Shown: positions 1 through 59,381 of the stretch, one piece after another
Position numbering within the stretch: the stretch's first letter is position 1
How the letters are laid out: each line of letters begins with the position of its first letter
DNA from: Bryobacterales bacterium
Lineage (GTDB): Bacteria > Acidobacteriota > Terriglobia > Bryobacterales > UBA6623
Length of the DNA: 64,000 nt
Assembly: GCA_965238045.1 (NCBI GenBank)
Contig: CBDEGU010000007.1
Location: 67,271 to 131,270, forward strand
Reading direction: 5' to 3'
Program-made: the position numbers and the translations under genes
The notes under the pieces: generated by a model
Told to the model about the DNA's origin: nothing
Seen by the model: the letters and a program-made list of their open reading frames with translations, nothing else
The model's database searches: none

Positions 1-23
1 AAAAGCTAAAAAATCGAGAAAAA

Positions 24-44
24 CCGGGCATTTCCGGACAAAAC
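24..44 (+). repeat. copy 1 of a 21-nt conserved core CCGGGCATTTCCGGACAAAAC, inside a C/A-rich segment (1-184)
   Basis: The same core recurs on the minus strand at 54344-54364 and 54474-54494 (19-20 of 21 nt identical). Each copy is preceded by an A-rich run. Confidence 0.6.
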
Positions 45-184
45 CTGTCACCGACCCTATCTTCAAACCCCAGCCGCACCAGCCGGGTCGCCTCCAAGAC
101 CGCCTTTCCCGGCGCCAAACCGCCACGCCGCCCCGTCCTCGTCTCTCGTGCGATGGCCCCGAAGCGCTGGCCGATAAGACCGTC

Positions 185-694
185 ATGGCGCCGCCGCTCA
201 CTGCTCCCCCCGCCGCCGACACCGACACCGGCACCGCCGCCGGCCCGCCGCTGGAAGTCCAGCTTCTCGACTCGCTATCGCGCATGTTGCGCCGGGGACA
301 CCGGCCGGCGAACTACCTGCTGCTCCGTCTGACCGACGGGCGAGTGAAGGCAGTCCTGGTTCCCGACGGCCTTGCTCAGGCAAGGGCCGAAGCAAGGCGG
401 ATTCGCAACGAGAACGGGCCACTGGAGGTCGCGCTCTACGCCGCCGTCAGCGAGCGAGACGGCGCGCTGCTGATCGAAGTCGGCGACCTCGCCAGCGGCC
501 GCCGTAGCCGCGCCATCCTGCGAGACAACGGCGGCGCTTGGCGCTGGCTCGGACGATCCAGCTACCCCGAGGCCGGCCCGGACGATCGCAGGAAGTCGGC
601 GATCTTCGCCGCGTCGTTGGGCATCACGATCGGCTTATTGCCGAACGCCGGGGCGATCGCCGCGCCGCCCGCCGTCTCGAGCTGCCCTGTGTGA
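185..694 (+). CDS. hypothetical protein (weak call)
   Basis: 169-aa ORF with GC-rich third codon positions over the first ~370 nt and no motif I recognise. The last ~130 nt overlap the convergent thrC 3' end, so the real extent is unclear. Confidence 0.3.
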   Translation: MAPPLTAPPAADTDTGTAAGPPLEVQLLDSLSRMLRRGHRPANYLLLRLTDGRVKAVLVPDGLAQARAEARRIRNENGPLEVALYAAVSERDGALLIEVGDLASGRRSRAILRDNGGAWRWLGRSSYPEAGPDDRRKSAIFAASLGITIGLLPNAGAIAAPPAVSSCPV

Positions 695-1965
695 TAGCGG
701 TAGACGAAATCCGGGTCCTTGAGCAGGTGCCCGGTCAAGATGGCGACCACATCGGCCTCGTGGTCGATCACCCCGGCGGCGGTCAGTTTTCGTATCCCGG
801 CGAGGGTGGCCGCCGAGGCCGGCTCGCAGCCGAACCCGCAGCGTCCGATGACCGACTTGGCGTCGGCGATCTCCTGCTCGGAGACCGAGCCCGCGCAGCC
901 GCCGCTCGATTCGACCTCGAAGCGAGCCTTCTCCCACGAAACCGGCGCTCCGATGCGAATCGCGGTGGCCAGCGTCTCGGGCTCCTCGACATTGCGGATC
1001 ACGCTTCGATCCTCGCGCTGGAACAGATCGAAGAAGGGCGCGGCTCCTTCGGCTTGAATGACCGCCAGCCGCGGGATTCGCTCGATCAGGCCGATCTGTT
1101 TCAGCTCGCGCAAGGCCTTGCCCAGCGCCGAGACATTGCCCAGATTGCCGCCCGGCAGCACGATCCAATCCGGTGTCTTCCAGCCTCGCTGGTCGAGCAT
1201 CTCGATGCAGATCGTCTTCTGGCCCTCGATGCGAAACGGATTGATCGAGTTCAGCAGATAGACGCCCAGCTCTTCGGCAAGACGGCGCACCAGAGCGAGA
1301 ATCTGGTCGAAATTCGCTTCCACCTCGATCGTCAGCGCGCCGTACTCGAGCGCCTGGGCCAGCTTGCCGTAAGCGATATTGCCGTGCGGGATGAAGACGA
1401 TCGCCTGCAGGTCCGCGGCCGCGGCGTAGGCGGCCATCGACGCGGATGTATTGCCCGTGGAAACGCAGGCGACCCGCTTCATGCCCAAACTTCGAGCCTG
1501 AGCCACGCCCGCCGTCATGCCGTTGTCCTTGAACGACCCGGAGGGGTTATAGCCCTGGTGCTTGAACTGGACGCGGGCCAGTCCCCCGTAGGAGGCTGCG
1601 CGAGGCGCCTCGAACAGCGGCGTATTGCCCTCGCCGAGCGTGACGATGTGCGCGGGATCCTCGACGAATGACAGCAGTTCGCGGTAGCGCCAGACTCCGC
1701 TGACATCCAGCCGCTCGCGGCTCGTTCGGCGCGCGGTCCAGGTCTTGGCCAGCTCGCCGGCGTCAAGGGAGGAAAGGTCGTATTCGGCTTCCAGCAGGGC
1801 GCCACAATCGCGGCACTGATAGATCACCTCGCTGATGGCGTAGTACTTGCGGCACTCGGGGTTGAAACAGACCAGACGGGCTTGCATGACTCGAGGATTG
1901 TCCGGGTGAGGTAAGGCGGCGGGAAGCCTTGGAGGAAACCCTTTCATGGTAACAGCGCCGGACAT
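562..1965 (-). CDS. thrC: threonine synthase
   Basis: PLP-lysine context PSGSFKDNG, an N-terminal Cys ribbon (CFNPEC...CRDCG) and ThrC-like sequence throughout. The start is uncertain (in-frame ATGs at 1965, 1947 and 1887). Confidence 0.9.
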   Translation of the reverse strand: MSGAVTMKGFPPRLPAALPHPDNPRVMQARLVCFNPECRKYYAISEVIYQCRDCGALLEAEYDLSSLDAGELAKTWTARRTSRERLDVSGVWRYRELLSFVEDPAHIVTLGEGNTPLFEAPRAASYGGLARVQFKHQGYNPSGSFKDNGMTAGVAQARSLGMKRVACVSTGNTSASMAAYAAAADLQAIVFIPHGNIAYGKLAQALEYGALTIEVEANFDQILALVRRLAEELGVYLLNSINPFRIEGQKTICIEMLDQRGWKTPDWIVLPGGNLGNVSALGKALRELKQIGLIERIPRLAVIQAEGAAPFFDLFQREDRSVIRNVEEPETLATAIRIGAPVSWEKARFEVESSGGCAGSVSEQEIADAKSVIGRCGFGCEPASAATLAGIRKLTAAGVIDHEADVVAILTGHLLKDPDFVYRYHTGQLETAGGAAIAPAFGNKPIVMPNDAAKIADFLRSSGPASG

Positions 1966-31120: not shown

Positions 31121-31200
31121 AGACAAGGCCGCCGAAGCCCGAATTCCCGCGTTATGGACGCATCGCCTCGTTTCTGGGTTTCTTGCTATGATGAAAATCT

Positions 31201-31256
31201 CTAGCGGCGGACAGCAGGATACGCGTCGCTAGCGGCGGACAGCAGGATACGCGTCG
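31201..31256. repeat. perfect 28-bp tandem duplication CTAGCGGCGGACAGCAGGATACGCGTCG x2
   Basis: Read directly. It lies in the bioB/Rieske intergenic region, ~90 nt upstream of the Rieske ATG. Confidence 0.9.
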
Positions 31257-31348
31257 CCTGCCAACCGCGATTCCAGCGCGTTACTGCCTTCCAGTGTTTA
31301 CCCTAGAGCCAATTTCGTCCAGATCACGTTTTCATAGAAGAGGTATCC

Positions 31349-31960
31349 ATGCTTGATCCAAACGCGGACCCGGCGACCGGCGCCGGGGGAGGGGCCGCGG
31401 CTGGCAAAGCGGAAAACTCCGCTGAGCCGTCCTTTGTTTCCAAGCTGATTCAGGGTTTCCGCTCCGGCGAATCCGGCAAGGAGGGCATCAGGACGCGGCG
31501 GCGCTTTGTCACCTTCGCCATCGCTGGTTTTCTCACAACGAACTTTCTGATGTTCTTGCGGTTCTTCTTCCCGCGAACCATCTTCGAGCCGAAAACCGTG
31601 TTTCGTATCGGCATGCCGGCCGATTTCGGTGTCGGGGTGGATACGAAATTTCAGAAGGCGCGGCGCATCTGGGTTGTCAAAAACACTGAGCGGCTGTTCG
31701 TGATCAACGCGATCTGCACGCATCTAGGCTGCACGCCGGACTGGAAAGAGTCAGAACAGAAATATAAGTGCCCCTGTCATGGCAGCGGTTATGATCCGGA
31801 AGGCATCAATTACGAGGGTCCGGCGCCCCGTCCCATGGACCGCGCTAGGGTAGAGATCGACCCCGAAGGCCAGATTGTCGTGGATACTAGTGTCACCTTT
31901 AAGTGGGAAAAAGGCAAGCGAAGCCAGTTTGATGATCCGGGTGCTTACGTCGCCATCTGA
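31349..31960 (+). CDS. Rieske 2Fe-2S subunit of a cytochrome bc-type complex
   Basis: CTHLGC...CPCHGS boxes, an RTRRRF twin-arginine motif and one TM helix. Confidence 0.9.
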   Translation: MLDPNADPATGAGGGAAAGKAENSAEPSFVSKLIQGFRSGESGKEGIRTRRRFVTFAIAGFLTTNFLMFLRFFFPRTIFEPKTVFRIGMPADFGVGVDTKFQKARRIWVVKNTERLFVINAICTHLGCTPDWKESEQKYKCPCHGSGYDPEGINYEGPAPRPMDRARVEIDPEGQIVVDTSVTFKWEKGKRSQFDDPGAYVAI

Positions 31961-32101
31961 TTCCGGATTCGAATCAGAAGCAAGGCGCGCGGCGCTCTCG
32001 TCGCGCCGCGTTTTCGGATCACGTCGCGCCAGGCGGTGATTCGTTTGCCGCCGGGATCTCGCATCGGTCGCGGCGACCGTCGAGAAAAGGAGCCAGATAG
32101 C

Positions 32102-33016
32102 ATGGCGGAAGGAACAGTCAAGAAAGATCAGGGCGTGGACGCGGCCGATGGCAACGGGAGCAAGCTGCTCGGCTTGATTGATTCCAGCGTGATCAAGGAG
32201 AAGGCGGCGCAAGACCTGGCAGCGTTCAAGAAACCCACCAAGTCCGAGTTGTACAAGTCGATTTTTCGTGTCAAGCACGACGAAACGCCCCGCAGCCGCA
32301 CACTCGGTGTTCTCAGTAATGTGTTCTTGCATCTGCATCCGGCGAAAATCAATCGGGACGCGGTCGCCTACAATTTTACTTGGGGCATGGGCGGTATCTC
32401 GTTCTACCTGTTCTGGGTGCTCACCTGGACGGGCGTGCTGCTGATGTTCTACTACCATCCGACGAAGGTGCAAGCCTTCCGCGATATCCTCTATCTGGAG
32501 CACGACGTGCCCTTCGGCAAGCTCCTGCGCAATATGCACCGCTGGGGCGCTCACGCGATGGTGCTGACCGTCTGGCTCCACATGTTCCGGGTCTTTCTCA
32601 CGGGCTCCTATAAGAAACCGCGCCAGTTCAACTGGTCGGTGGGCGTGATTCTGCTTGTGCTGACCCTGCTGCTCTCGTTCACCGGCTATCTGCTGCCCGA
32701 CGATCAGCTCGGTTTCTGGGCCGTCACCGTGGGCACGAACATGGCGCGTGCCAGTCCGATGTTGGGCCATGAAGGACCCTTCGGACTGATGATGGGCATG
32801 ACGCCCTACAACGACGTGCGTTTCGCGCTGCTGGGAGGCTCCATCGTCGACTCCAATGCCCTCTTGCGCGCTTATATTTGGCACTGTGTCGCCATACCAG
32901 GATTCGCCGCGACGTTCATGATCGTGCACTTCTGGAGGATCCGCAAGGACGGCGGCATCTCGGGCCCCGCGCCCATGATGCTCGAGAGGGAGATCAAGCC
33001 GTTGCGAAAGATCTAG
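32102..33016 (+). CDS. cytochrome b, N-terminal (b6-like) subunit
   Basis: Cytochrome b/b6 N-terminal-domain sequence (FYLFWVLTWTGVLLMFYY, RNMHRWGAHAMV, FTGYLLPDDQLGFWA). ATG 32102 follows AAAAGGAG. Confidence 0.9.
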   Translation: MAEGTVKKDQGVDAADGNGSKLLGLIDSSVIKEKAAQDLAAFKKPTKSELYKSIFRVKHDETPRSRTLGVLSNVFLHLHPAKINRDAVAYNFTWGMGGISFYLFWVLTWTGVLLMFYYHPTKVQAFRDILYLEHDVPFGKLLRNMHRWGAHAMVLTVWLHMFRVFLTGSYKKPRQFNWSVGVILLVLTLLLSFTGYLLPDDQLGFWAVTVGTNMARASPMLGHEGPFGLMMGMTPYNDVRFALLGGSIVDSNALLRAYIWHCVAIPGFAATFMIVHFWRIRKDGGISGPAPMMLEREIKPLRKI

Positions 33017-33064
33017 CGCCAGGATCGATTCTGTACGGTTGCGCTTACGAGGAGACAAGGTTTT

Positions 33065-34000
33065 ATGGATTGGCATCAGCTTTGGACGATCATCTCCCTG
33101 CCCGACAATGTCCCGATTCTCGGGTTGATGGTTCTGATCCCGTTCTACAGTTGGTACGCCTTCCGCCAGGCGTTCGCCAACGACCGGCTGATCAAGAAAC
33201 TGGAAGCGGATCCGGAAATGGCCAAGACCCATCACAGGAAAACGCAGCCTTTTCGGGAGGGCTGGGCCCGCGAGGTTTATGTCTGGCCCTACCTGCTGCG
33301 CATAGAATTCTTGTCCGCCATTATCGTGACCGCGATCTTGATGGTATGGTCGATCACTCTCGACGCGCCGCTGGAAGAGCCCGCCAATCCGTCGCTGACG
33401 ATGAACCCGTCCAAGGCGCCCTGGTACTTCCTGGGGCTGCAGGAGATGCTCGTCTATTTTGATCCCTGGATTGCCGGCGTCATGATGCCGACTCTGATCG
33501 TCGTCGGCCTGCTCATCATTCCCTATATCGACACGAATCCGCTGGGGAATGGCTACTACACATACGCTCAGAGAAAATTCGCCATTTGGGCCTTCCTCTC
33601 TGGCTTTATTATTCTCTGGTGCTCCATGGTCGTGATCGGCACGCTGATTCGCGGACCCGGCTGGATGTGGTTCTGGCCCGGCCAGACTTGGGACCATAAC
33701 CGTCTCATCTTCGAAATCAATCGCGATCTGCACGAGATTCTTGGGATGACCGACCCGCTGGTCTACGGCATCTTCGGCTTCCTGGTCGTGGCGGGATTCT
33801 ATCTGGTTGCCGGTTACGGCGTGCATCGGATCATGTCCTGGAACGAGTTCAATCGCAAGATTCTGGCCCGCATGACGCTGCTGCAATATCTGACCATGAA
33901 TTTTCTCCTCGTCACCATGATCGCGCTGCCGGTCAAGATGGCCGCGCGCCTGCTCTTTCGGATTAAGGACGTGTGGGTCACGCCCTGGTTTAATGTCTGA
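33065..34000 (+). CDS. cytochrome b C-terminal domain subunit (subunit IV-like, extended)
   Basis: PWYFLGLQEMLVYF (PEWY-region equivalent) plus several TM helices. Confidence 0.8.
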   Translation: MDWHQLWTIISLPDNVPILGLMVLIPFYSWYAFRQAFANDRLIKKLEADPEMAKTHHRKTQPFREGWAREVYVWPYLLRIEFLSAIIVTAILMVWSITLDAPLEEPANPSLTMNPSKAPWYFLGLQEMLVYFDPWIAGVMMPTLIVVGLLIIPYIDTNPLGNGYYTYAQRKFAIWAFLSGFIILWCSMVVIGTLIRGPGWMWFWPGQTWDHNRLIFEINRDLHEILGMTDPLVYGIFGFLVVAGFYLVAGYGVHRIMSWNEFNRKILARMTLLQYLTMNFLLVTMIALPVKMAARLLFRIKDVWVTPWFNV

Positions 34001-40629: not shown

Positions 40630-41039
40630 CCGCTGCTCCTCTTGGAGCGATAGGAATCCCCCAACACCTGTCTCAGTTTCGTGTAGGCACGATGGGCTCT
40701 CTGTTTGACCGCCCCTACGGTCGTACCGGTCGCCCCGGCCACCTCTTCCAGGCTCATTCCCGATATCTTCAGCATCCGAATCACTTCTTGCTGCTTGTCC
40801 GGCAATGCACGGACGGCGCGCCAGAGGTCGAAGTCGGGCGTGTTCGGCTGCGTCGGCGAGGGTTCGAACCCTTCGCTGCTCTCATCGAGCACATACTCGC
40901 GCGTGTCGATCCGATGTCTTCGGCGATAAGCGTCAATCCGCGTATGTCTCGCGATGGCGAAGATCCAAGGCAGCACGGGCGTTCCCGGACGGTGACTATG
41001 ACGCGCCTTGTGGATGCGCAGCCAGCAGTCTTGCAGCAT
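40626..41039 (-). CDS. ECF sigma factor lacking region 2.1 (possibly truncated or a pseudogene)
   Basis: Regions 2.2-2.4 and 4 are present (MLQDCWLRIHKAR..., LPDKQQEVIRMLKISGMSLEEVAGATGTTVGAVKQRAHRA). An in-frame TAG lies at 41058-41060, six codons upstream of the ATG. Confidence 0.65.
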   Translation of the reverse strand: MLQDCWLRIHKARHSHRPGTPVLPWIFAIARHTRIDAYRRRHRIDTREYVLDESSEGFEPSPTQPNTPDFDLWRAVRALPDKQQEVIRMLKISGMSLEEVAGATGTTVGAVKQRAHRAYTKLRQVLGDSYRSKRSSG

Positions 41040-41547
41040 ATCCTCCGCATAGGCGCGCTAGCGTCGGCTGCGCCGCTCCCTTCTTTACTTCGTCTGGCCG
41101 AGACATGAGGTTACGGGGTGAGGGCGGACTCGGCGCCCGGAAAACGCGTGAAGAACACAGGAACAGCGACGACCATCATGCCGTATCCGTCGCGCCGGAG
41201 CGGAGGAACCAGCCTGCAAGCGGACACTCCGCTCCGCACTTCTGTATTTCCGTGGCTCGGCGGTCTGTGCGATTGGGCTCGCGGCGTAATTCTTGCTGAA
41301 GTCCCGCTGCCGGTCGCCGCCCGCGCCGCGATGGACTCCAGGGTCACCGTCGGATTGCCTCGCGACCCGGCACTGGCCGCCACCAGAGATTCACCCGCTA
41401 TTATAGGAAACCGGCCCCGCGGCCTGTCCGCCAGTGATCGTCCATTCGCCTTGAGAGCGCGGTCCGCCCCATCCTCTTCCTGCCAGGTGGAACCGGATCA
41501 CGCTTGGAACATCAGGTTGGAGTACCAAAATAAATGAGAATAAGTGC

Positions 41548-41576
41548 TTGCCAAACCGCCAGTTTCACCGTATAAT
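41548..41576 (+). promoter_or_regulatory. near-consensus sigma70 promoter TTGCCA-17-TATAAT
   Basis: Hexamers at 41548-41553 and 41571-41576, with an AT-rich upstream tract (41524-41545) in an otherwise GC-rich region. Confidence 0.65.
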
Positions 41577-41594
41577 CTTAGCTATTCTCGCATC

Positions 41595-41628
41595 GCTGCC
41601 ACCCCGATGCACCGGTGGCGGCCTTTTT
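41595..41628 (+). terminator. intrinsic-terminator-like hairpin ~20 nt downstream of the promoter
   Basis: 9-bp stem GCTGCCACC/GGTGGCGGC (one G-U pair), a 10-nt loop, then C-TTTTT. Confidence 0.6.
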
Positions 41629-41826
41629 AGACTCATTTCCCGCTTGAGTTCGCAGTCGTTTGAGAACACGTTAGAGTGCCTCCTGCACATGCTGGCGCGG
41701 TTACATCTCCGGCTTGCCGCCCGATGTAACCGAATCCAGAGCGGGGTAGTCTAATAGACCGGGCTCAAAACGACGATATAGAAAAAGTTTGCCGGGCGGA
41801 GAGCGCCGGCAGGTCAAAGGTGATTT

Positions 41827-42237
41827 ATGGCAAAGCAAGCAGCGAAGGTGCTCACGAAAGCTCGGATCAGACGCTTCAAGGTGATCTTGGAAGAAAAAGC
41901 AGAGGAGACCCGCGGTAATCTCGGTTCGCTCAAAGCCGCGAACATGCTGGCTCGGGGGCAGGACCCGGTCGCTCTTGAGGATTTGCCCGTCCAAAGCCAC
42001 GAAGAGTGGATTTTCCTCAATCGCAACAACATCGACGTCATGTTGTTGCGCGAGATAGAAGACGCGCTGACGCGAATAGACGGCGGCGGCTACGGAACCT
42101 GTTCCGAGTGCGACCAGCCCATTTCGAGCATGCGCTTGCGGGCTCTGCCCTGGGCGCGCTACTGCGTGCCTTGTCAGGAAGAGTTGTCCGACGATCCGGA
42201 GGAAAAGTCGAAACAGAGCCACCTGTATTCGTTCTGA
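41827..42237 (+). CDS. DksA/TraR family C4-type zinc-finger protein
   Basis: CSEC-x17-CVPC zinc finger with a preceding helical region. RBS AAAGGTGA. Confidence 0.85.
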   Translation: MAKQAAKVLTKARIRRFKVILEEKAEETRGNLGSLKAANMLARGQDPVALEDLPVQSHEEWIFLNRNNIDVMLLREIEDALTRIDGGGYGTCSECDQPISSMRLRALPWARYCVPCQEELSDDPEEKSKQSHLYSF

Positions 42238-48118: not shown

Positions 48119-48148
48119 AGCTGCCACCCCCAGTTTGTTCTCCTTGCC

Positions 48149-48178
48149 GCCGCTTCCCCGCGCCGCTTCCCCGCGCCG
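48149..48178. repeat. 13-bp tandem repeat GCCGCTTCCCCGC x2.3
   Basis: Read directly. It is intergenic. Confidence 0.8.
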
Positions 48179-48267
48179 GAACCTGCCTCGGAACCCTTCC
48201 CCAAAATGTGCCCTCGGCCGATGGGCCCGGGAACGGCCTCGCCGGGCGCTAGGCGCCGCTAGCCATC

Positions 48268-49677
48268 TCAGAGCGGCCTTGCAACGGCGATATAGGGGCC
48301 CTCGGGCGACGACACGCCGTCAATCACGATGCGCACGCCCAAATCTCCATCCGCGGCGCTCTCCGGCACTCGCACGACGAGTTGATAGAGGCCCGCGCAG
48401 CAGGGCGCCAGGCCGGCATAGAAGATGTCTTCGGCCCCCAGTTCCATCCCTCCAAAAGCGACGCGAACTGACTGCGTCGCCAACGGCGCCAGAGGGTTGT
48501 CCGCGTTCACATATGGGGGGATCTCTCCAGCTTCGTATGAGGGCCGCGTCGGCCCAAACCCAGTGCCAAACAAGCTGATCGTTTCACCAGGAGCGGCCGG
48601 GGTGGTCTCCACTCCCTCGCCGAACAGTCCCGCTGCGCCCACCAGACCGGGACCGCCTTGGTGAAACGCGGCAATCGGGTTTCGTCCGTCGTCGCGGTTC
48701 ACAAAATCGAAGAAGGCTGGGGTGGTCGCGACGATGTCGACCGGCCTGGGCTGGCTGCGAACTTCATTTGTAGTGCCGCAGCTTCGCACGGCGACGACGC
48801 TGGCGGGACTCAGCCCTCCCAGATGAGGAACCTGTAGATTGATCTGACCCGGCAGTACAGCCAGAAGCGGAGACCGCTCCCCGTCAATCTCGACACAGGT
48901 ACCCGCTAGCTGCGTGCTGACCCGTCCGGTGCTGTCGAGGGCCGCAACCAGCGCCGCCACGCCCGAACGCGCAAACTCCTGGCCGTAGATCGTAACCAGC
49001 GCATAGGCCGTAACCGTGCGCACGACGGGCGTTCCGGTCGCCAAGACGATGCCGCCCTCGTTGATCGACAGCTGAGCCACACCAGCCGGGTCCGGCTCGA
49101 TACTTGCCTCAATGGTATAGACAACATCGCCGGTGTGGCGCCTGTCCCCGTTGGCCGCGTTGCCCGCCGCGGCAAAGCGCACACGCCCAATATCTTCCGA
49201 TGGGGCGGTCCAGTGCATCAGAAACGAACCGATCTCGCCCGTCGTGGGAAGCGTGTGAGTTGCCCATTGCAGCGGAGCGGACGCGCACGGGCTGATCTTG
49301 TCGCTCTCCTTCACTTGAACCGACGGCTCGGCGGCTGTGAACGACCCGGCAAGGTCACAGCCGTCCGTGGTGCGGGCGGTCAACTCAAACCCCCATCGAA
49401 GGGCGTTGGGGTCCTCGATTCTCACTTCGACCGGCATGATCTCGCCCGGCCGGTAGCGGTACTCTCCTATCGGCATCCCGCCAAGCAGGATGCTCACCCG
49501 GCCCGGCCCTGTGTTGACCTGCCCGACGTGGCAACTGCTCTGAGCGCAGCCGCCTTCTCCCGGAAAGTCTCCCCCGGTCGCACCGGCCGGCGCGCCGTCT
49601 TCGCGGGAAAGCAGCAATCCGGGCCAGCTCACCAGCAGCGTGCTCAGCACGGTCAACGCGAGCCGTCCGATCTTCAT
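48268..49677 (-). CDS. secreted protein with a Solibacter-type C-terminal domain
   Basis: C-terminus ...CAGLYQLVVRVPESAADGDLGVRIVIDGVSSPEGPYIAVARPL resembles the acidobacterial 'Soli_cterm' family. Signal MKIGRLALTVLSTLLVSWPG. The N-terminal domain contains GGCAQSSCH. Confidence 0.7.
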   Translation of the reverse strand: MKIGRLALTVLSTLLVSWPGLLLSREDGAPAGATGGDFPGEGGCAQSSCHVGQVNTGPGRVSILLGGMPIGEYRYRPGEIMPVEVRIEDPNALRWGFELTARTTDGCDLAGSFTAAEPSVQVKESDKISPCASAPLQWATHTLPTTGEIGSFLMHWTAPSEDIGRVRFAAAGNAANGDRRHTGDVVYTIEASIEPDPAGVAQLSINEGGIVLATGTPVVRTVTAYALVTIYGQEFARSGVAALVAALDSTGRVSTQLAGTCVEIDGERSPLLAVLPGQINLQVPHLGGLSPASVVAVRSCGTTNEVRSQPRPVDIVATTPAFFDFVNRDDGRNPIAAFHQGGPGLVGAAGLFGEGVETTPAAPGETISLFGTGFGPTRPSYEAGEIPPYVNADNPLAPLATQSVRVAFGGMELGAEDIFYAGLAPCCAGLYQLVVRVPESAADGDLGVRIVIDGVSSPEGPYIAVARPL

Positions 49678-52919: not shown

Positions 52920-54212
52920 TCAGACCGATTCGGGAACCACAAACGGTTTGCGGTAACGGCGCGTGAGGTAGGAATTGGCCTCGTCATCGCCGGGGAAGTT
53001 CTCCCACGCCGAATCGAAAGTGAGTTTCCGTCCCGTGCGATAGGAGATGTTGCCCAGGTGGCAGAGAGCCGAGGAAAGGTGGCCTTCGAGAATCTCGGCG
53101 TTCAGCACCCTTCTCTCGCGGCTCTTGACGGCGTTGAGGAAGTTCTGGAAGTGCGACTCGCCACCGGACGCGGGCCTGCTTCCCGGACCCGGTTCGCCCT
53201 TCTCGCCCATGTAGGCCTTCCAGCCGTGGCGGCCCATCGTCACGTAGCCCTCGGTTCCATAGAAGATGTTGCCGACCGTGACGCCCTTCTCGTCGTTGGT
53301 GAGCAAGCCGCGCACCTCGAACACCAGCAGTGCGTCGTCGTACTCAAAGGTGGTGACCTGCGTGTTGGGCGTTTCCTGGTCGTCGTCGTACTGAAACTTG
53401 GCTCCGGCGCCGTGGATCTTTCGCGGCAGGTCGCTCTTTCCCAGGCCCCAACGGGCGATATCCATCTGGTGGATGCCCTGATTGCCCATGTCGGTCGTGC
53501 CGTAGTCCCAGAACCAGTGCCATTGATAGTGCAGGCGGTTGGAGTTGAACGGCCTCTCGGGGGCCGGCCCTAGCCACAGGTTATAGTCTAGTCCTTCGGG
53601 GACGGGCGAGTCGGGCACGCGGCCAATCGACTTGCGGCGTTTGTAGCACAGGGCTTTGGCCATATAGATCTTGCCGATGCCGCCCTCATGCAGGAACTTC
53701 ATCGCTTCCTGCATGTCGACTTCGCTGCGGCTCTGGGTGCCGGTCTGCACGATGCGGTCGTATTTGCGGGCCGCTTCGACGATGCGGCGTCCTTCGCTGA
53801 TGTTATGCGAGACCGGCTTTTCGACATACACGTCCTTGCCGGCCTGGCAGGCCCAGATGGCGGCCAGGGCGTGCCAGTGATCGGGCGTGGCAATCGAGAC
53901 GAGGTCGATGTCCTTGTCGTCCATCACGCGCCGCAGGTCCTGCACGACCTTGGGCCTGGGTCCGCCGGCCTCTTCCACGATCTTCAAAGCCTTGCCGACC
54001 ACATTGAGATCGGTGTCGCATATTGTGGTAACGACCGAATCCGGCGATGCGGTGAAACCCTTGACATGGCTGCGCCCGCGCCCGCGAACGCCAATCACCG
54101 CAACGCGCAGGCGCTCGCTCGGTAGTCGCGCTCCGGCGGCCGATGCGGCGCTCGCGCTCAAGGGGGCGGCCGCTGCCGCCACGGTATTTCTCAAGAAGGA
54201 TCGACGGTCCAT
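52920..54212 (-). CDS. Gfo/Idh/MocA family oxidoreductase with a Tat signal
   Basis: MDRRSFLRNTVAAAAA..., Rossmann motif RVAVIGVRGRGRSH and a family-typical C-terminal alpha/beta domain. Confidence 0.85.
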   Translation of the reverse strand: MDRRSFLRNTVAAAAAPLSASAASAAGARLPSERLRVAVIGVRGRGRSHVKGFTASPDSVVTTICDTDLNVVGKALKIVEEAGGPRPKVVQDLRRVMDDKDIDLVSIATPDHWHALAAIWACQAGKDVYVEKPVSHNISEGRRIVEAARKYDRIVQTGTQSRSEVDMQEAMKFLHEGGIGKIYMAKALCYKRRKSIGRVPDSPVPEGLDYNLWLGPAPERPFNSNRLHYQWHWFWDYGTTDMGNQGIHQMDIARWGLGKSDLPRKIHGAGAKFQYDDDQETPNTQVTTFEYDDALLVFEVRGLLTNDEKGVTVGNIFYGTEGYVTMGRHGWKAYMGEKGEPGPGSRPASGGESHFQNFLNAVKSRERRVLNAEILEGHLSSALCHLGNISYRTGRKLTFDSAWENFPGDDEANSYLTRRYRKPFVVPESV

Positions 54213-54232
54213 GAGGGATCTCCTAGCCCCCC

Positions 54233-54261
54233 ACAATAGACGATTTTCCTTCCTGAGTCAA
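54233..54261 (-). promoter_or_regulatory. candidate promoter TTGACT-17-TATTGT for the oxidoreductase gene
   Basis: Read on the minus strand. It is followed by AGGAG and ATG 54212. Confidence 0.55.
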
Positions 54262-54343
54262 AGCCCCTAAACCGCCGGTAAGGGAGAGGCAACGGCGGGG
54301 CGACAGCAATTAGGGGGGCGAGACGGCGGGATTTGGGAGTGAC

Positions 54344-54364
54344 GTTGTGTCCGGTAATGCCCGG
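54344..54364 (-). repeat. copy 2 of the 21-nt core (CCGGGCATTACCGGACACAAC)
   Basis: 19/21 identical to copy 1 (24-44). It is preceded on the minus strand by AAAAAAAATCGCCAGAAA. Confidence 0.6.
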
Positions 54365-54473
54365 TTTCTGGCGATTTTTTTTGGTTTTTTTTTGTGAGGG
54401 AGACGGCTGAGGCTGGGTCGGGGAAGGGTTCTTGGGCGATGGGTGCTGGGGTCGGGGCTGGTTTCGCGGCGGC

Positions 54474-54494
54474 GTTTTGTCCGGATTTGCCCGG
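54474..54494 (-). repeat. copy 3 of the 21-nt core (CCGGGCAAATCCGGACAAAAC)
   Basis: 19/21 identical to copy 1, and 130 nt from copy 2 on the same strand. Confidence 0.6.
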
Positions 54495-54580
54495 ATTTTC
54501 GGAACTTCGGACGACTGCGGGCGGGTTGAGGGGCTCGACGGTGTCTCGCCCCCTAGCTCCGCTGCATGGTCTGGCGGATG

Positions 54581-54629
54581 GGTTGCCGGCTGGCTGGGGT
54601 TGCTGGCCGCGGTTGCCGACTGGCTGGGC
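54581..54629. repeat. direct repeat GGTTGCCGGCTGGCTGGGG / GGTTGCCGACTGGCTGGGC (30-nt period)
   Basis: Read directly. 17 of 19 nt are identical. Confidence 0.7.
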
Positions 54630-54680
54630 TGGCTAGCTTCGTTCTTTGTGGTGCTTGTTTTTCAAATTCAAAAAACTTTC

Positions 54681-54702
54681 AAAAAAGTGAGAGGCGCCTC
54701 TC
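54681..54702 (-). terminator. short hairpin plus double U-tract (possible intrinsic terminator, minus strand)
   Basis: Minus strand GAGAGGCGCCTCTC-AC-TTTTTT-GAAAG-TTTTTT. The stem is only ~5 bp. Confidence 0.45.
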
Positions 54703-55286
54703 GTTCCGACTATGTGATCCCGGCGGGCCGCTTCAGCCGGAAGTTGCAGGCGGTTCCGGGCGAAGGGTTCTCTGGCGCGGTCTTGCCGCGCAGTAGTCCC
54801 GCGCGGCGATGGTGCTCGACTGCGCTCGTAGCCCTTCGCGGTGGATGTCCACTTTCGAGAGCCGTCCGAAGACCCACCTTTGCGGTCACCCTCTCCTCTG
54901 TGATTCGAGGAGGTGATGAACCGCTGAGCGAGCTTTCTGTCCTGGCCAGGAAACGGTCGGGGGATCGCGGTGATCTATCCTTTCCGGTCGTTACGGGTAT
55001 AGGCTAGCACGGGGTGTCAAGTGTTTTGGGGTGTTTTTTGCGTATGTTGTTGATTTGGCGGGGGTGAATTGTTGTGACTCGGCTGTTGGGGAGGGGGTGC
55101 GGCGGTGGGTGGCGGGCGCGGGGGATTCATGGTTTGCTGGGGCGGGAAAAGCCGCGGATCTCAAAACCGAGATCCTATAGTTGGTGCAGACCAGGATCTG
55201 TTGTGGAAGGGGGAGAATCGTCGTCGGGTCTGTGGAAATGTGGAAAACTCCACAGTGGCGGCGCCGCCAACTATGACAGGATGGCC

Positions 55287-56906
55287 CTACGGTTCCACGC
55301 AGGTGAAGCTAGCGGCGTCGTTGGGATCGCCCGAACCGTTGTACCGCGCTACCCGCGGATAAGGGCACAGGGGTCTGGTGAGTTCGACATGGCCCGCCAC
55401 GACACGGGCCGCGTCCATGCGTTCGGGCGTCTCGCCGGCTTCAACCCAATTCACGAGGCGCGTGAAGGCGTCGAATTGGTCGACACCGAGGCCGCCGCGG
55501 CAGTGGAACATGCCGGGAACCATGTACAGGCGGAAGAAATCGCGTGTTTCCGGACCCGTCGTCTTCATCACGTCCTCGTAGTAGTTGACGGCCATCATCG
55601 GGTTGAGGGCGGCATCGGCCCAGCCAAAATACATCAGCATCTTGCCGCCGCTGTCGCGAAAACCGCTCAGGTCGGGCTGGACGGCGTCGAGGATCGAGCG
55701 AATGAAGCTCATGCGTTGCGGATCGTTATCGAAATCGAAGTTGCCCCAATCGAACTCCGGCTCGTCGGGCCGAAAAGCCATGTTGCGCAGGAAGGTCTCG
55801 GCGAAGACCTGCTGGACGGGGCGGCCGCTCTCATGGACGATCCAGCGATCCCAGCCGCTTGAACGGCGCGGCCCGCTGGGCGGGGCCGACTCGGCGCCGA
55901 GTGGCTGGCCGGGGAAAAGAGTCTCCCCGCCAGCAGTCACATCAGCGTATATCTTCGCCAGGGCGGAGATTTCGGCCAGCGTGAAACAGTCGCCCGCGGC
56001 GGCGCCCTCACATCGGGGCAGGTGCTCGGAGGGGTCGAAGTCGCAGGCTCGCGGATCTTCGATCAGCCCGTCTTCGAGGCCGTCGATCTTGTCGCAACGC
56101 GCATAGACCTTTTCGCCGAGCAGGTCGACTTTGGCGATCGAGAGCGGCGCCTCCGCCAGCGCTTGCTGAACCCAGATATAACCGATCATCGTGCGGCTGA
56201 AGTCGAGCACCGGCGCCCCGGCGAGGATTCCGTCGAAGTCCTCGGGAAAGCGCTGCGCGGACATCAGGCCTTGGCGGCCGCCGGTGGAACAGCCGTCCCA
56301 GTAGGAGTAATGCGCCGCGCCGCCGTAGTAGGCCGCGATCATTTTCTTGGCGGTTTGAACGGTGAGATGGACGGCGCGAAAACTATAGTCGATCTCCTTT
56401 TGCAAGTTGTTGAGAGCGAAGCTTCCCAGCGGCTCGACGCGGCGGTCGTGGCCCGTGTCGGTGTAGGTGGTCGCGAAGCCGCGGGAGAGGGCGTGCCGCG
56501 AAGCGCGGATGCGGTTTGGGGCGTCCGGCGAGGTGCCGGCATACCCTCCGTTGCCGTACATGTAGAGGCGCCGATTCCAAGCGGTGGGCAGGTCCACGGA
56601 AAACCGAATCTGAGGCGGGATCACGCCGAGCACGCGGCAGTGCTCCGGCGCATCTTCGGATGCTTCCATCAGGGTTGCCGAGATGATCGAATAGGCAGTT
56701 CCGGTGAGGGAAACGAGTCCTGGGCAAGCGGCCCTCGGGCGGGCCGTCATCTGGGTGTAGGGGACGGTGGAGTGATCGGCGTCCGCGAAGCTGCGCCCTC
56801 CCTGGGCGGCGGCGGACTGCGCGCCGAGGACGAGCGCGGCGGCAAGAACAATCGAGGGACCGCTGCGGCCGTGGTTCATGATGAGGACTAGTTTGGCAGA
56901 AAGCAC
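55287..56906 (-). CDS. tannase/feruloyl esterase family alpha/beta hydrolase
   Basis: YSYWDGCSTGGRQGLMSAQRFPEDFDGILAGAP (GCSTG nucleophile elbow). A signal peptide is present. An alternative start is Met10 (56879). Confidence 0.85.
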   Translation of the reverse strand: MLSAKLVLIMNHGRSGPSIVLAAALVLGAQSAAAQGGRSFADADHSTVPYTQMTARPRAACPGLVSLTGTAYSIISATLMEASEDAPEHCRVLGVIPPQIRFSVDLPTAWNRRLYMYGNGGYAGTSPDAPNRIRASRHALSRGFATTYTDTGHDRRVEPLGSFALNNLQKEIDYSFRAVHLTVQTAKKMIAAYYGGAAHYSYWDGCSTGGRQGLMSAQRFPEDFDGILAGAPVLDFSRTMIGYIWVQQALAEAPLSIAKVDLLGEKVYARCDKIDGLEDGLIEDPRACDFDPSEHLPRCEGAAAGDCFTLAEISALAKIYADVTAGGETLFPGQPLGAESAPPSGPRRSSGWDRWIVHESGRPVQQVFAETFLRNMAFRPDEPEFDWGNFDFDNDPQRMSFIRSILDAVQPDLSGFRDSGGKMLMYFGWADAALNPMMAVNYYEDVMKTTGPETRDFFRLYMVPGMFHCRGGLGVDQFDAFTRLVNWVEAGETPERMDAARVVAGHVELTRPLCPYPRVARYNGSGDPNDAASFTCVEP

Positions 56907-58190: not shown

Positions 58191-59381
58191 TCATTCAGCT
58201 TGATGCCGGCGGGCTAGTTTGTCGTTGAGGGTGACGCCGAAGCCGGGACGCTCCGAGAGGGTGAGATATCCTTTGTCGATGGCCTCGGGCGGGTCGAGCA
58301 GCTCGGCTCGCCAGGGTACTTCGCCATGGGAAAACTCGAGAATCTGAAAGTTGGGGAGTCCGGCGCAGACCTGGGCCGCCGCAACGTTGCCGACCGGACT
58401 GGCCGGGCCATGGGGCGAGCAAGGAAGGCCGGCGGCTTCGGCCATGGCCGAGATTTTTTTGAGTTCGAGCATGCCGCCGCAATACTTCACATCGGGCATC
58501 AGAATGTCGGCGGCGCGGGCCTCGATGTAGCGCAAATTCTCCTCAACGCCGAAGAGGGATTCGCCCCCCGCGGTGGGAGCTTTGGCCTCGCGGTTGATGG
58601 CGGCCAGATCGCCGGGCGATTTTGAAACCTCTTCCAGCCAGAACAGATCCAGCGGCTCCATGCGGCGGGCGAGGTCGAGTCCGCCTGCGAGATCAAAATT
58701 ACTGTGCGCGTCGATTAGCAAATCGCCACTCGGACCGAGAACTTCGCGGACGGCCCGGGCGCAGTCGATCCCTAGCTGGGTGTGGGCCTTGCGGCCGGCG
58801 GCGGTGGTCATCCGGTTCATGCCGTCGAACGGGGCGAGCTTAATGGCGTCGAATCCGGCGGCGGCGGCGCTGCGTGCCATGGCGGCGAAACCTTCAGGGG
58901 TGCGCTGCTCGGTGGACCGGTTGATGTTGGCGTAGTTGCGAATCTTGTCGCGCAGCTTGCCGCCGAAGAGCTGATAGGTTGGCACGCCGGCGACTTGGCC
59001 TTGCAAGTCGTAGAGGGCCTGTTCGATGGCGCTGAAGGCGCAGGAGGCCGAGCGGCGGTGGGCGGCGTGCTCGGGCCAGACCGATTGACGCAGCCACTCG
59101 ATGTCGTAGATCGAGCGGCCTTGGATTCGCTCGAAGTATTCTTGGAGCTTGATGACCTGCGGATCGTCTTTGCCGGCGTGGGAGGCGTCGCCGATGCCGG
59201 TCAGCCCGGCGCTGGTCTGAAGACGCGCCAGGACCCAATTGCCGCGCCGGTTGACGCGCACGCGAATGATTTCGAGGCCCGTGACGAGGACCCTGGCGGC
59301 ATGGCGGTCAGGCGGTGTGCCTGCGCCGCACGCGGTGAGGACAGCCGTGCTGGAGAGTAGAAATTGGCGGCGCGGCATCAC
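58191..59381 (-). CDS. enolase-superfamily enzyme (dehydratase-like) with a Tat/lipoprotein signal
   Basis: MMPRRQFLLSSTAVLTACGAG, with metal-ligand contexts LIDAHSNF, FWLEEV and TAGGES. Confidence 0.8.
   Translation of the reverse strand: MMPRRQFLLSSTAVLTACGAGTPPDRHAARVLVTGLEIIRVRVNRRGNWVLARLQTSAGLTGIGDASHAGKDDPQVIKLQEYFERIQGRSIYDIEWLRQSVWPEHAAHRRSASCAFSAIEQALYDLQGQVAGVPTYQLFGGKLRDKIRNYANINRSTEQRTPEGFAAMARSAAAAGFDAIKLAPFDGMNRMTTAAGRKAHTQLGIDCARAVREVLGPSGDLLIDAHSNFDLAGGLDLARRMEPLDLFWLEEVSKSPGDLAAINREAKAPTAGGESLFGVEENLRYIEARAADILMPDVKYCGGMLELKKISAMAEAAGLPCSPHGPASPVGNVAAAQVCAGLPNFQILEFSHGEVPWRAELLDPPEAIDKGYLTLSERPGFGVTLNDKLARRHQAE

Follow-up and report, generated by a model that had tools for sequence, protein, structure and literature searches.

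BIME/REP of enterobacteria, BOX of pneumococci, ERIC and RIME are intergenic repeats of ~35-300 bp. The long direct repeats of E. coli, LDR and QUAD/SIB, proved to be type I toxin-antitoxin RNA loci. Stretches of C-rich, G-poor, unstructured RNA of at least 80 nt have the composition of Rho-loading (rut) sites. The Acidobacteria are numerous in soil, and almost nothing is known of their non-coding repertoire. Two motifs are relevant here: Acido-Lenti-1, of which Lentisphaera and Koribacter have multiple copies, often in tandem (alignment in PMC2864571), and Solibacter-1, a candidate structured RNA of ~118 nt that one acidobacterium, from the same order as the bacterium considered below, carries many times (Weinberg et al. 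2010, PMC2864571).

The locus under study is a gap, 54262-55286, in a 64-kb stretch of Bryobacterales DNA (the window: the whole of the DNA that was analysed); it lies between the stop codon of a tannase gene (55287) and the start of a GFO_IDH_MocA gene (GFO, below). Most of it, ~54340-55175, represents a short version of a repeat that is dispersed, modular and non-coding, measures 0.8-1.3 kb and belongs to an uncultured Bryobacterales-like soil acidobacterium, an identification made with high confidence: its copies lie in unrelated intergenic contexts, are built of modules and have no coding capacity. The window holds two of them, the second ending at 1-45 (39 of 43 positions, read by eye, match the end of copy L104); there, the C/A-rich strand is the plus strand. 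Four further copies, L101-L104, come from other contigs of the species group, each with unrelated genes around it, and cover 55088-54341 at 85-90% identity. A check of conservation and copy number, which the original prediction had proposed, thus recovers the element in other strains, at other loci and on one other metagenome contig (L093, a partial copy, 92% identity); confinement to a single strain, named in advance as an outcome that would tell against the prediction, is not what was found. Short-read assemblies have the repeat on contigs 650-1400 bp long, the outcome expected when a repeat interrupts assembly. Its modules are listed in Table 1.

Table 1. Modules of the repeat, its flanks, the second copy and the longest minus-strand reading frames (window coordinates)
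Feature	Position	Strand	Remark
Locus-specific spacer, tannase stop to repeat	55176..55286	-	outside repeat family
5' hairpin module, GGATCTC-GGTTTT-GAGATCC then GCGGCTTTTCC	55142..55175	-	terminator-like for transcription from tannase
C/A-rich, G-poor linker	55061..55141	-	C+A 0.80, G 0.12
Conserved upstream block, AAATCAACAACAT...AAAACAC-TTGACA	55011..55060	-	92% mean pairwise identity, five independent copies
Core 5' domain	54867..55010	-	95% pairwise identity; long hairpin
Core 3' domain	54703..54866	-	94% pairwise identity; GUCUUCGGAC hairpin and hairpin 54807-54785
Terminator-like hairpin, GAGAG-GCGC-CUCUC + AC + U6 GAAAG U6, then A/T-rich stretch	54665..54702	-	pattern scan
3' arm, C/A-rich, with ~30-nt CAGCCAGCCGGCAACC-type tandem units at 54581-54637	54500..54664	-	tandem pair
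Internal motif 2, AAAATCCGGGCAAATCCGGACAAAAC	54474..54499	-	95% identity among copies
Most skewed part of 3' arm, C+A 0.79, G 0.13, ending A9-CC-A8	54369..54473	-	composition
Terminal motif 1, AAACCGGGCATTACCGGACA + ~8 nt	54341..54368	-	sharp 3' boundary of repeat
Locus-specific 5' region of GFO_IDH_MocA gene	54214..54340	-	not common to other copies
End of second repeat copy, last ~45 nt, cut by window edge	1..45	+	motif at 20-39
59-aa ORF	54710-54889	-	longest in gap; just below 60-aa cut-off
57-aa ORF	54991-55164	-	second longest in gap; just below 60-aa cut-off

The 3' end of the repeat is sharp: all copies finish ...GGGCATTnCCGGACA(n)AACGCACC and are unrelated thereafter, identity among them falling to 33%, which is random. 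On the 5' side homology to other copies begins at ~55172-55179. Two copies of a 25-nt motif lie in the 3' arm, the second marking the sharp end. Their 20-nt common sequence has three matches (54349-68 and 54479-98 on the plus strand, 20-39 on the minus strand), where 0.05 would be expected; the two at the left of the gap had already been pointed out. Copies differ by whole modules. The 5' hairpin module (-16.9 kcal/mol here; -18.5 in L101, with a stem of 9-10 bp) belongs in the longer copies to 208-237-bp tandem units of the 5' arm, and 55110-55175 is common to L101 and L104 at 94%; a module of ~150 nt, present in L101-L104, is missing here. The number of ~30-nt units in the 3' arm also varies: two here, fewer in L102, L101 and L103, zero in L104. 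Strains L082, L083 and L084 have a 126-nt deletion in that arm, one end point of which is internal motif 2; since 54369-54473 is missing from these strains, which are otherwise 98.4% identical, this most skewed part of the arm is dispensable in nature. All four strains compared carry the element at the tannase-GFO locus, so that no empty site is found among them, and the synteny of the two genes is restricted to the species. A search for a phage or plasmid origin gave zero matches in 72,556 plasmids, 50,697 phages and IMG/VR.

Is any of this a gene for a protein? The composition that first drew attention to the gap is real: G+T on the plus strand, put at ~78-85% by hand count, is 0.79 for 54361-54480 and 0.85 for 55021-55080, and the segment between (54700-55010) is ordinary at 0.56, as described. 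Mean G+T in 80-nt windows across the 64 kb is 0.505 (sd 0.063), and all such windows reaching at least 0.75 fall in 54311-54500, 54581 or 54981-55150; the skew is therefore unique within the 64 kb and far beyond chance. Credible coding sequence is absent from the gap. The spread of GC among codon phases is at most 0.18 throughout, against 0.3-0.57 in the flanking genes, and no minus-strand ORF attains 60 aa, just as the original prediction had it; nor was it wrong in calling the plus-strand ORFs non-protein-like, for they have no periodicity, no Pfam match and no conserved frame. A decayed gene or an unannotated small protein can point to the 59-aa minus-strand ORF, with a GGAG-rich stretch before it, and to a plus-strand ORF of 191 aa whose counterparts elsewhere have been annotated by gene callers. 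This reading, decayed gene or small protein, is given a very small probability. Six ORFs searched against Pfam for a gene or pseudogene returned zero matches. The 191-aa ORF matches ~30 database "proteins" that lack Pfam domains and are frame-switched with respect to one another, and an exhaustive HMMER search found just 16 cluster representatives, all close relatives, among 1.84 billion. Variable sites among the copies have no 3-nt periodicity and include three 1-nt indels. Between copies the 59-aa ORF has ~10 non-synonymous and 4 synonymous changes (counted by eye) and a frameshift, and of a plus-strand mini-ORF of 30 codons just 3 codons are left in three sequences out of seven (the window, L082 and L102, read by eye). 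The region as a whole offers neither a conserved frame nor codon periodicity nor similarity to a known protein.

Of the three explanations originally offered (a decayed mobile-element remnant, a long structured 3' UTR, a novel non-coding RNA), the UTR fares worst. The proposal that the gap is specific to this locus, as a long structured 3' UTR for the tannase or a 5' leader for GFO, draws on the fact that both flanking genes lie on the C/A-sense strand and that the first strong hairpin followed by a U-run beyond the tannase stop is inside the region. It is very improbable all the same: the same element is found at loci with different neighbours, some of them divergent (as the upstream genes are at L101 and L102, which supports its independence from neighbouring genes), and the region is absent from all the tannase-homologue loci considered, those of 80 species representatives and of relatives at 75-82% identity. 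The mobile-element option survives in part, not as a decayed coding remnant but as an intact-looking family of multi-copy, non-coding, modular repeats. The RNA option survives for the core only, as an unproven possibility.

The repeat resembles BIME/REP, BOX, ERIC and RIME in being multi-copy, exclusively intergenic, non-coding, built of variable modules and restricted to a narrow lineage, and in its hairpin modules, some of them terminator-like. It differs in size (0.8-1.3 kb as against ~35-300 bp), in its arms, skewed toward C/A on one strand and G/T on the other, and in possessing a ~385-nt core of ordinary composition that is much better conserved than the rest; unlike BIME/REP, it has no RAYT-type transposase at the loci examined. 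With LDR and QUAD/SIB it shares an intergenic extent of several hundred bp, promoter- and terminator-like signals and a core resembling structured RNA. It differs in having no small hydrophobic ORF that is conserved (frames shift, and three of seven sequences have the mini-ORF cut short), and no antisense pair was identified.

The core (55060-54680) opens with an A-tract and a TTGACA box, continues for ~330 nt in ordinary composition and closes with a weak terminator-like hairpin. In all ten pairs of independent copies it has fewer substitutions than the arms (4-7% versus 12-23%; Fisher p from 1e-3 to 2e-9), that is, it is 2-4 times better conserved; 85 nt of its 5' domain are identical in the window and L093. 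The arms diverge and yet hold their composition, with C+A at 0.64-0.84: pairwise identity is ~67% in the linker (with ~24% substitutions, 9/37, relative to L093) and 67-69% in 54500-54664. TTGACA itself (55020-55015), promoter-like with the A-tract upstream of it, is invariant and the next 4 nt are variable; a σ70 scan finds no promoter at this box and no -10 hexamer at 16-18 nt, with a consensus that may not be this phylum's. At the other end of the core, the terminator-like structure described originally is recovered by the scan (GAGAGGCGCCTCTC at 54702-54689, then AC-T6-GAAAG-T6), but as a weak one: the stem has 5 bp (~-7 kcal/mol). The conserved hairpin with its U6 nevertheless fits the intrinsic terminator expected of a small-RNA gene: it is retained in seven of seven sequences, with C/U variation in the loop, at -6.4 to -7.2 kcal/mol, which is weak throughout.

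These observations suggest a reading that we hold tentatively, at not quite an even bet: the element is a mosaic repeat specific to its lineage, and its core would be a self-contained small-RNA cassette in the C/A sense. On the minus strand the order of parts is 1) a terminator-like hairpin, 2) the C-rich, G-poor linker, 3) the ~385-nt core as candidate cassette, presumably transcribed in the C/A sense, 4) the C/A-rich 3' arm and 5) the two 25-nt motifs. The arms would be fast-evolving spacers that keep composition alone and yield unstructured, C-rich, G-poor RNA; because this matches the composition of Rho-loading sites, they could halt transcription running into or out of the cassette. (The likeness to rut sites is one of composition only: the minus strand of 55175-55011 is 45% C and 14% G, while the arms extend to 400 nt, contain A-runs and repeats, and are partly dispensable.) New copies may arise through an agent acting in trans or through recombination, with slippage between internal repeats adding and removing modules.

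The folding of the core lends this reading some substance and takes some away. The local hairpins described originally are where they were said to be: GCCGCGC-N9-GCGCGGC at 54807-54785, the GUC-UUCG-GAC region as GTCTTCGGAC at 54873-54864, and a third in which CACCTCCTC (54915-54907) pairs with GAGGAGAGGGTG (54898-54887). The central segment folds better than shuffled sequences on both strands (z -2.9 and -2.7), and folding consequently does not identify the strand. Covariation, proposed as a check, is not significant: with 7 sequences and 100 pairs, the observed values were reached in 50 of 500 shuffles. Two of these pairs change on both sides, from G-C to A-U; the closing pair of hairpin 54807-54785, which has a variable loop (GACUA, GAUCA or GAUAA), changes in this way, and pair 82:136 of alignment A5, in the core 5' domain, is G-C, G-U or A-U depending on the copy. 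Among one-sided stem changes, nine stay paired through G-U on the C/A strand; nine of the 12 non-pairing cells on that strand are A-C (both read by eye), which would be G-U on the opposite strand, so that a strand-specific signal is absent. Four changes in L093 disrupt predicted long-range pairs in the core 3' domain. A cluster of seven strain changes at hairpin 54807-54783 was considered as a sign of selection and rejected: the strains diverge unevenly over all 16 kb compared (0-18 differences per 300 nt), and the cluster alone cannot, therefore, indicate selection. A covariance model of the core 5' domain (R1) matches solely copies of the repeat in ~1 Mb of related acidobacterial loci; distant structural homologues of the domain, sought in the same DNA, are not found beyond the known copies.

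A cassette is not the only way to account for a conserved core: its conservation could reflect gene conversion among copies, or a sequence needed in cis for spread, instead of an RNA product. This is the starting point of an alternative that is somewhat unlikely in our estimation, namely a purely selfish or structural DNA repeat, either a non-autonomous mobile element or a mosaic spread by recombination, devoid of functional RNA, with the core and the 25-nt motifs kept for spread in cis or by gene conversion and the hairpins acting at the level of DNA. The many copies in unrelated contexts, the sharp 3' end, the short contigs, the use of an internal motif as a deletion end point, the lack of significant covariation or strand preference (both strands folding equally well) and the presence of IS elements (IS256-, IS1595-, IS4- and IS5-type) in or beside several copies are all in its favour. 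Set against these, terminal inverted repeats are missing (the sole core-spanning pair has 17 nt at 76% and is of low complexity; the ends are unlike when compared by eye), target-site duplications are not seen, and no transposase or recombinase accompanies the copies consistently. Such a repeat, if selfish, should, moreover, drift evenly after insertion; here the arms diverge 2-4 times faster than the core. A MITE in particular was considered and rejected: its terminal inverted repeats are wanting, the two ends (5' hairpin and 3' motif) being unrelated on inspection.

If the hairpins and arms end transcription, might that be the whole purpose of the element? A cis-acting insulator or regulatory cassette would end transcription from upstream by intrinsic and Rho-dependent termination, at the hairpin on the 5' side, in the C-rich, G-poor arms and at the U6-tailed hairpin of the core; the motif end would serve as a binding site or an outward signal for the downstream gene. 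Such a role agrees with the neighbours of four of six copies, those before GFO and before ORF 185 (at the edge of the window) together with L101 and L104: the next gene has the same orientation and begins 115-146 nt beyond the motif end. It also agrees with the terminator-like hairpins, found both 5' and where the core ends, with the excess of C over G in the arms and, within the conserved motif 2, with two TCCGG half-sites 11 nt apart. In the other two copies (L102 and L103), however, the downstream gene is convergent; GFO has a promoter-like site of its own in unique sequence (TTGACT-17-TATTGT at 54261-54233, followed by AGGAG and an ATG at 54213-54211); and in L082-84 the arm adjoining the downstream gene is deleted and the gene kept. 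The best-conserved part, the 330-nt core, is also left unexplained. An insulator is judged improbable.

Returning to the small-RNA cassette, one may ask whether it belongs to a described family. It had not been possible to match the central segment to RNase P, tmRNA, SRP or 6S RNA by eye, and the searches agree: Rfam 15 has zero matches in the whole window at gathering scores, its best match in 54100-55450 at E up to 10 has E = 0.42 (far below gathering), and ARAGORN finds no tRNA or tmRNA. The Acido-Lenti-1 motif (RF01687; defined by two hairpins, conserved loops and at least 37 bits, the gathering score) scores 43 bits in L101-L104 only, within the ~150-nt module that splits their linker; the copy in the window contains no match reaching 37 bits. 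Like the repeat, the motif is itself multi-copy. The match, however, covers 46 nt of an element of >1 kb, and its strand is the G/T-rich one, whereas the terminator-like features of the core are on the other; together with the equal folding of the opposite strand, this placement counts against a cassette in the C/A sense. Solibacter-1 poses the same dilemma as the repeat but comes from a different species and measures ~118 nt against the ~385 nt of the core; homology was considered and rejected, blastn yielding chance matches of 16-25 nt at E of at least 1.5, the best of them over 16-18 nt.

A more adventurous extension, which we think unlikely, starts from the long hairpin of the core 5' domain, the apex of which pairs CAUCACCUCCUC (resembling the 3' end of 16S rRNA) with GAGGAGAGGGUG. 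The core would be a multi-copy small RNA of Bryobacterales-like acidobacteria moved by its own non-coding vehicle, an analogue of a SINE; its invariant hairpin would display or sequester a mimic of the 16S 3' end, GCGGUU-C-AUCACCUCCU (compared with GCGGUUGGAUCACCUCCUUA, which we take to be the 16S rRNA 3' end), and may titrate Shine-Dalgarno sequences or a factor that recognizes the 16S tail, with the C-rich arms as Rho-loading insulators.

Whichever reading holds, a gene-free, multi-copy repeat of ~1 kb breaks short-read assemblies, makes gene callers issue dozens of false "hypothetical proteins" (~30 clusters were found) and marks spots of IS insertion and indel accumulation. Transcription of the core would make it a multi-copy small RNA, restricted to one lineage and spreading in an unusual manner. 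Without transcription, the element would usefully exemplify how a repeat can mimic structured RNA in low folding energy, hairpins and a few compensatory changes. One lesson is to establish copy number before putting forward any candidate RNA.

The immediate surroundings have a history of their own. The runs of G on the plus strand noted in the right arm are present at ~55090-55126, within the linker, and the small hairpin noted directly after the tannase stop is there too: the spacer can form the alternative hairpins CTGTGGA..TCCACAG and GTGGA-GTTT-TCCAC (-10.4 kcal/mol). In L082-84 and L001 this spacer is duplicated around a 270-bp insert, which is unique to the locus and is not a member of the repeat family. 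Two insertions were observed in passing: L093 has an IS1595-type element, the end of which (GGGGTATCC...) is unlike the ends of the repeat, directly after the terminator-like hairpin, and in L001 an IS has inserted within the spacer.

There is little doubt that in the gene-free interval of the window (~54262-55286) lies a non-coding mosaic repeat (~54340-55175, read here on the minus, C/A-rich strand) that is lineage-specific and occurs in multiple copies. The DNA is as the original prediction described it, and is now explained one level further: the longest minus-strand ORFs encode 59 and 57 amino acids, below the proposed limit of 60, and codon periodicity is absent from the interval; the extreme plus-strand G+T content seen by hand count is 0.79 at 54361-54480 and 0.85 at 55021-55080, while the central 54700-55010 has an ordinary 0.56; every named hairpin, including the one followed by T6, lies where it had been placed. 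G+T of at least 0.75 (80-nt windows, whole 64 kb; mean 0.505, sd 0.063) is confined to this interval, and the central segment folds ~2.8 sd better than shuffled sequence, on both strands equally.

The core-hairpin pattern, used as query, led to a single metagenome contig, L093. Its match to window 55092-54667 is 92% identical and stops at an IS1595-type insertion just past the T-run, in the A/T-rich stretch that follows the core. A spurious 191-amino acid plus-strand ORF matched 30 "proteins" in a protein database (E 1e-66 to 1e-3), from many contigs (in places two share an equal longest-contig size), none with a Pfam domain; their reading frames jump relative to one another, and it is therefore the DNA that is the conserved entity. 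Among 1.84 billion representatives, an exhaustive HMMER search yielded just 16 close clusters. The matching "proteins" served to fetch four paralogous loci (L101-L104), whose copies cover window 55088-54341 at 85-90% identity and have unrelated genes around them (Tad pilus, protein kinases, a BrnT/BrnA pair, a restriction-modification system, DUF3604). The end of another copy opens the window, so that one genome carries at least two copies in a 64-kb stretch. That second copy ends ~140 nt before an ATG at 185. The ORF starting there (185-694, plus strand, 169 amino acids) has no match in Pfam and overlaps the 3' end of a threonine-synthase-like gene (562-1965, minus strand). Transposase genes of IS256, IS1595, IS4 and IS5 type lie inside or beside several repeat copies. 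The paralogous copies and the frame analysis contradict two other readings of the interval, as a 3' UTR and as a pseudogene.

Features of the repeat and its surroundings (window coordinates unless a locus is named; identities are mean pairwise values for five independent copies)
Feature	Location	Strand	Identity or remark
Tannase/feruloyl-esterase gene	55287-56906	minus	borders the gene-free interval
Tat-signal GFO_IDH_MocA oxidoreductase gene	ATG at 54213	minus	borders the interval on the other side
Start of window copy: hairpin GGATCTC-GGTTTT-GAGATCC, then GCGGCTTTTCC	55172-55142	minus	
C/A linker			67%
A-tract and TTGACA block			92%
Core 5' domain			95%
Core 3' domain			94%
3' arm			67-74%
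Motif 2			95%
End of second repeat copy (last ~45 nt, cut by window edge)	1-45	plus	orientation opposite to the 54340-55175 copy
Acido-Lenti-1 (RF01687) match	L101 6944-6991; L102 6770-6817; L103 5730-5777; L104 5751-5798	plus (locus coordinates)	
Transposase genes at copies	L001 7673-11036; L093 1-2780; L101 889-3293, 11255-12202; L104 7339-8096		

On the 3' side the boundary is sharp, all copies ending with AAAAAATCnCCAAAAACCGGGCATTnCCGGACA and ~8 nt more, past which identity falls to the random level of 33%. The 5' side is built of modules: in longer copies there are two or three tandem units of 208-237 bp and a ~150-nt module, missing from the window copy, that matches Rfam Acido-Lenti-1 (43 bits in L101-L104 against a gathering score of 37, on the G/T-rich strand), which suggests that larger repeats can include this published motif as a module. 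When substitutions alone are counted, divergence is 4-7% in the core and 12-23% in the arms, in 10 of 10 pairs (p 1e-3 to 2e-9); the arms keep C+A at 0.64-0.84 despite their divergence.

No RNase P, tmRNA, SRP or 6S signature had been recognized by eye in the central segment, and Rfam likewise returned nothing: the window has no match that reaches a gathering score, and the best E in the gap region is 0.42. Searches for tRNA and tmRNA, for Pfam domains in every ORF of the gap region, and for plasmid, phage or viral contigs matching the repeat were also negative. The repeat behaves like the intergenic mosaic repeats BIME, BOX and ERIC of other bacteria, but is several times larger and strongly strand-skewed, and its conserved core is long. 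The closest precedent in print, the Solibacter-1 motif (Weinberg et al. 2010, PMC2864571, Additional file 1), has no sequence similarity to it. The repeat is a new family of a kind of element already known, possibly with a new small RNA.

By its tannase the window falls within Acidobacteriota, close to Bryobacterales; that protein is just 74% identical to its closest species representative, and neither the neighboring gene nor the gap region is found at more distant tannase loci. Within the same species, four metagenome-assembled contigs (L001, L082-84) have the locus at 98.4-99.3% identity to the window and differ from it through indels, not decay. L082-84 share a 126-nt deletion located exactly between the two 25-nt motifs. 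A 270-bp insert (9708-9978 in L082; also in L083, L084 and L001) occurs at this locus only, between direct duplicates (114-119 nt) of the tannase 3' end and spacer; in the window that stretch (55174-55292) is single and the insert is absent. L001 also has an IS256-type element, itself carrying a nested IS, directly after the tannase stop, and another IS256-type insertion (L001 2466-3915, corresponding to window 58985-58992) that splits a mandelate-racemase-like gene; in the window this gene is intact. Seven of the nine central-segment differences between the window and L082-84 fall within 17 nt (54799-54783), in the loop and closing pair of one hairpin; these strains diverge in a patchy manner throughout, consistent with recombination tracts.

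Does the core specify an RNA? Several features speak for it: 1) TTGACA is invariant, with a conserved A-rich block 5' and a variable spacer 3' of it; 2) the hairpin and U6 are conserved; 3) the core is non-coding, its variable sites lacking periodicity and its indels being three of 1 nt; 4) it is under more constraint than its flanks; 5) two base pairs switch from G-C to A-U. On the other side, no -10 element lies at a workable distance from TTGACA and a promoter scan reports none; the terminator stem is just 5 bp (about -7 kcal/mol); 50 of 500 shuffles reach the observed covariation; one-sided changes would keep pairing equally often on the opposite strand; and four L093 changes disrupt predicted long-range pairs. 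A covariance model of the core 5' domain found only the known copies in ~1 Mb of related DNA. An RNA product of the core is plausible, and could come from either strand. At its apex, the best-supported hairpin pairs GCGGUUCAUCACCUCCUC with GAGGAGAGGGUG; the former appears to resemble the 3' end of 16S rRNA, and the likeness may be relevant.

The reading that we tentatively place first is that the core would be a self-contained cassette for a small RNA, with the skewed arms as its spacers, whose C-rich, G-poor transcripts would favor Rho loading and thereby insulate it. Second comes a selfish or structural DNA repeat devoid of RNA function, which strikes us as somewhat unlikely. A cis-acting insulator or regulatory cassette is distinctly improbable: a co-oriented gene begins 115-146 nt past the motif end in 4 of 6 copies, but in the other two the downstream gene is convergent.

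Elsewhere in the window, two tandem 28-nt units (31198-31253, 96% identical) lie within intergenic 31121-31297, and three ORFs (31298-33886, 40805-42222 and 48135-48578) whose GC at third positions is 0.55-0.58 (remainder of the window, ~0.78) may be acquired DNA.
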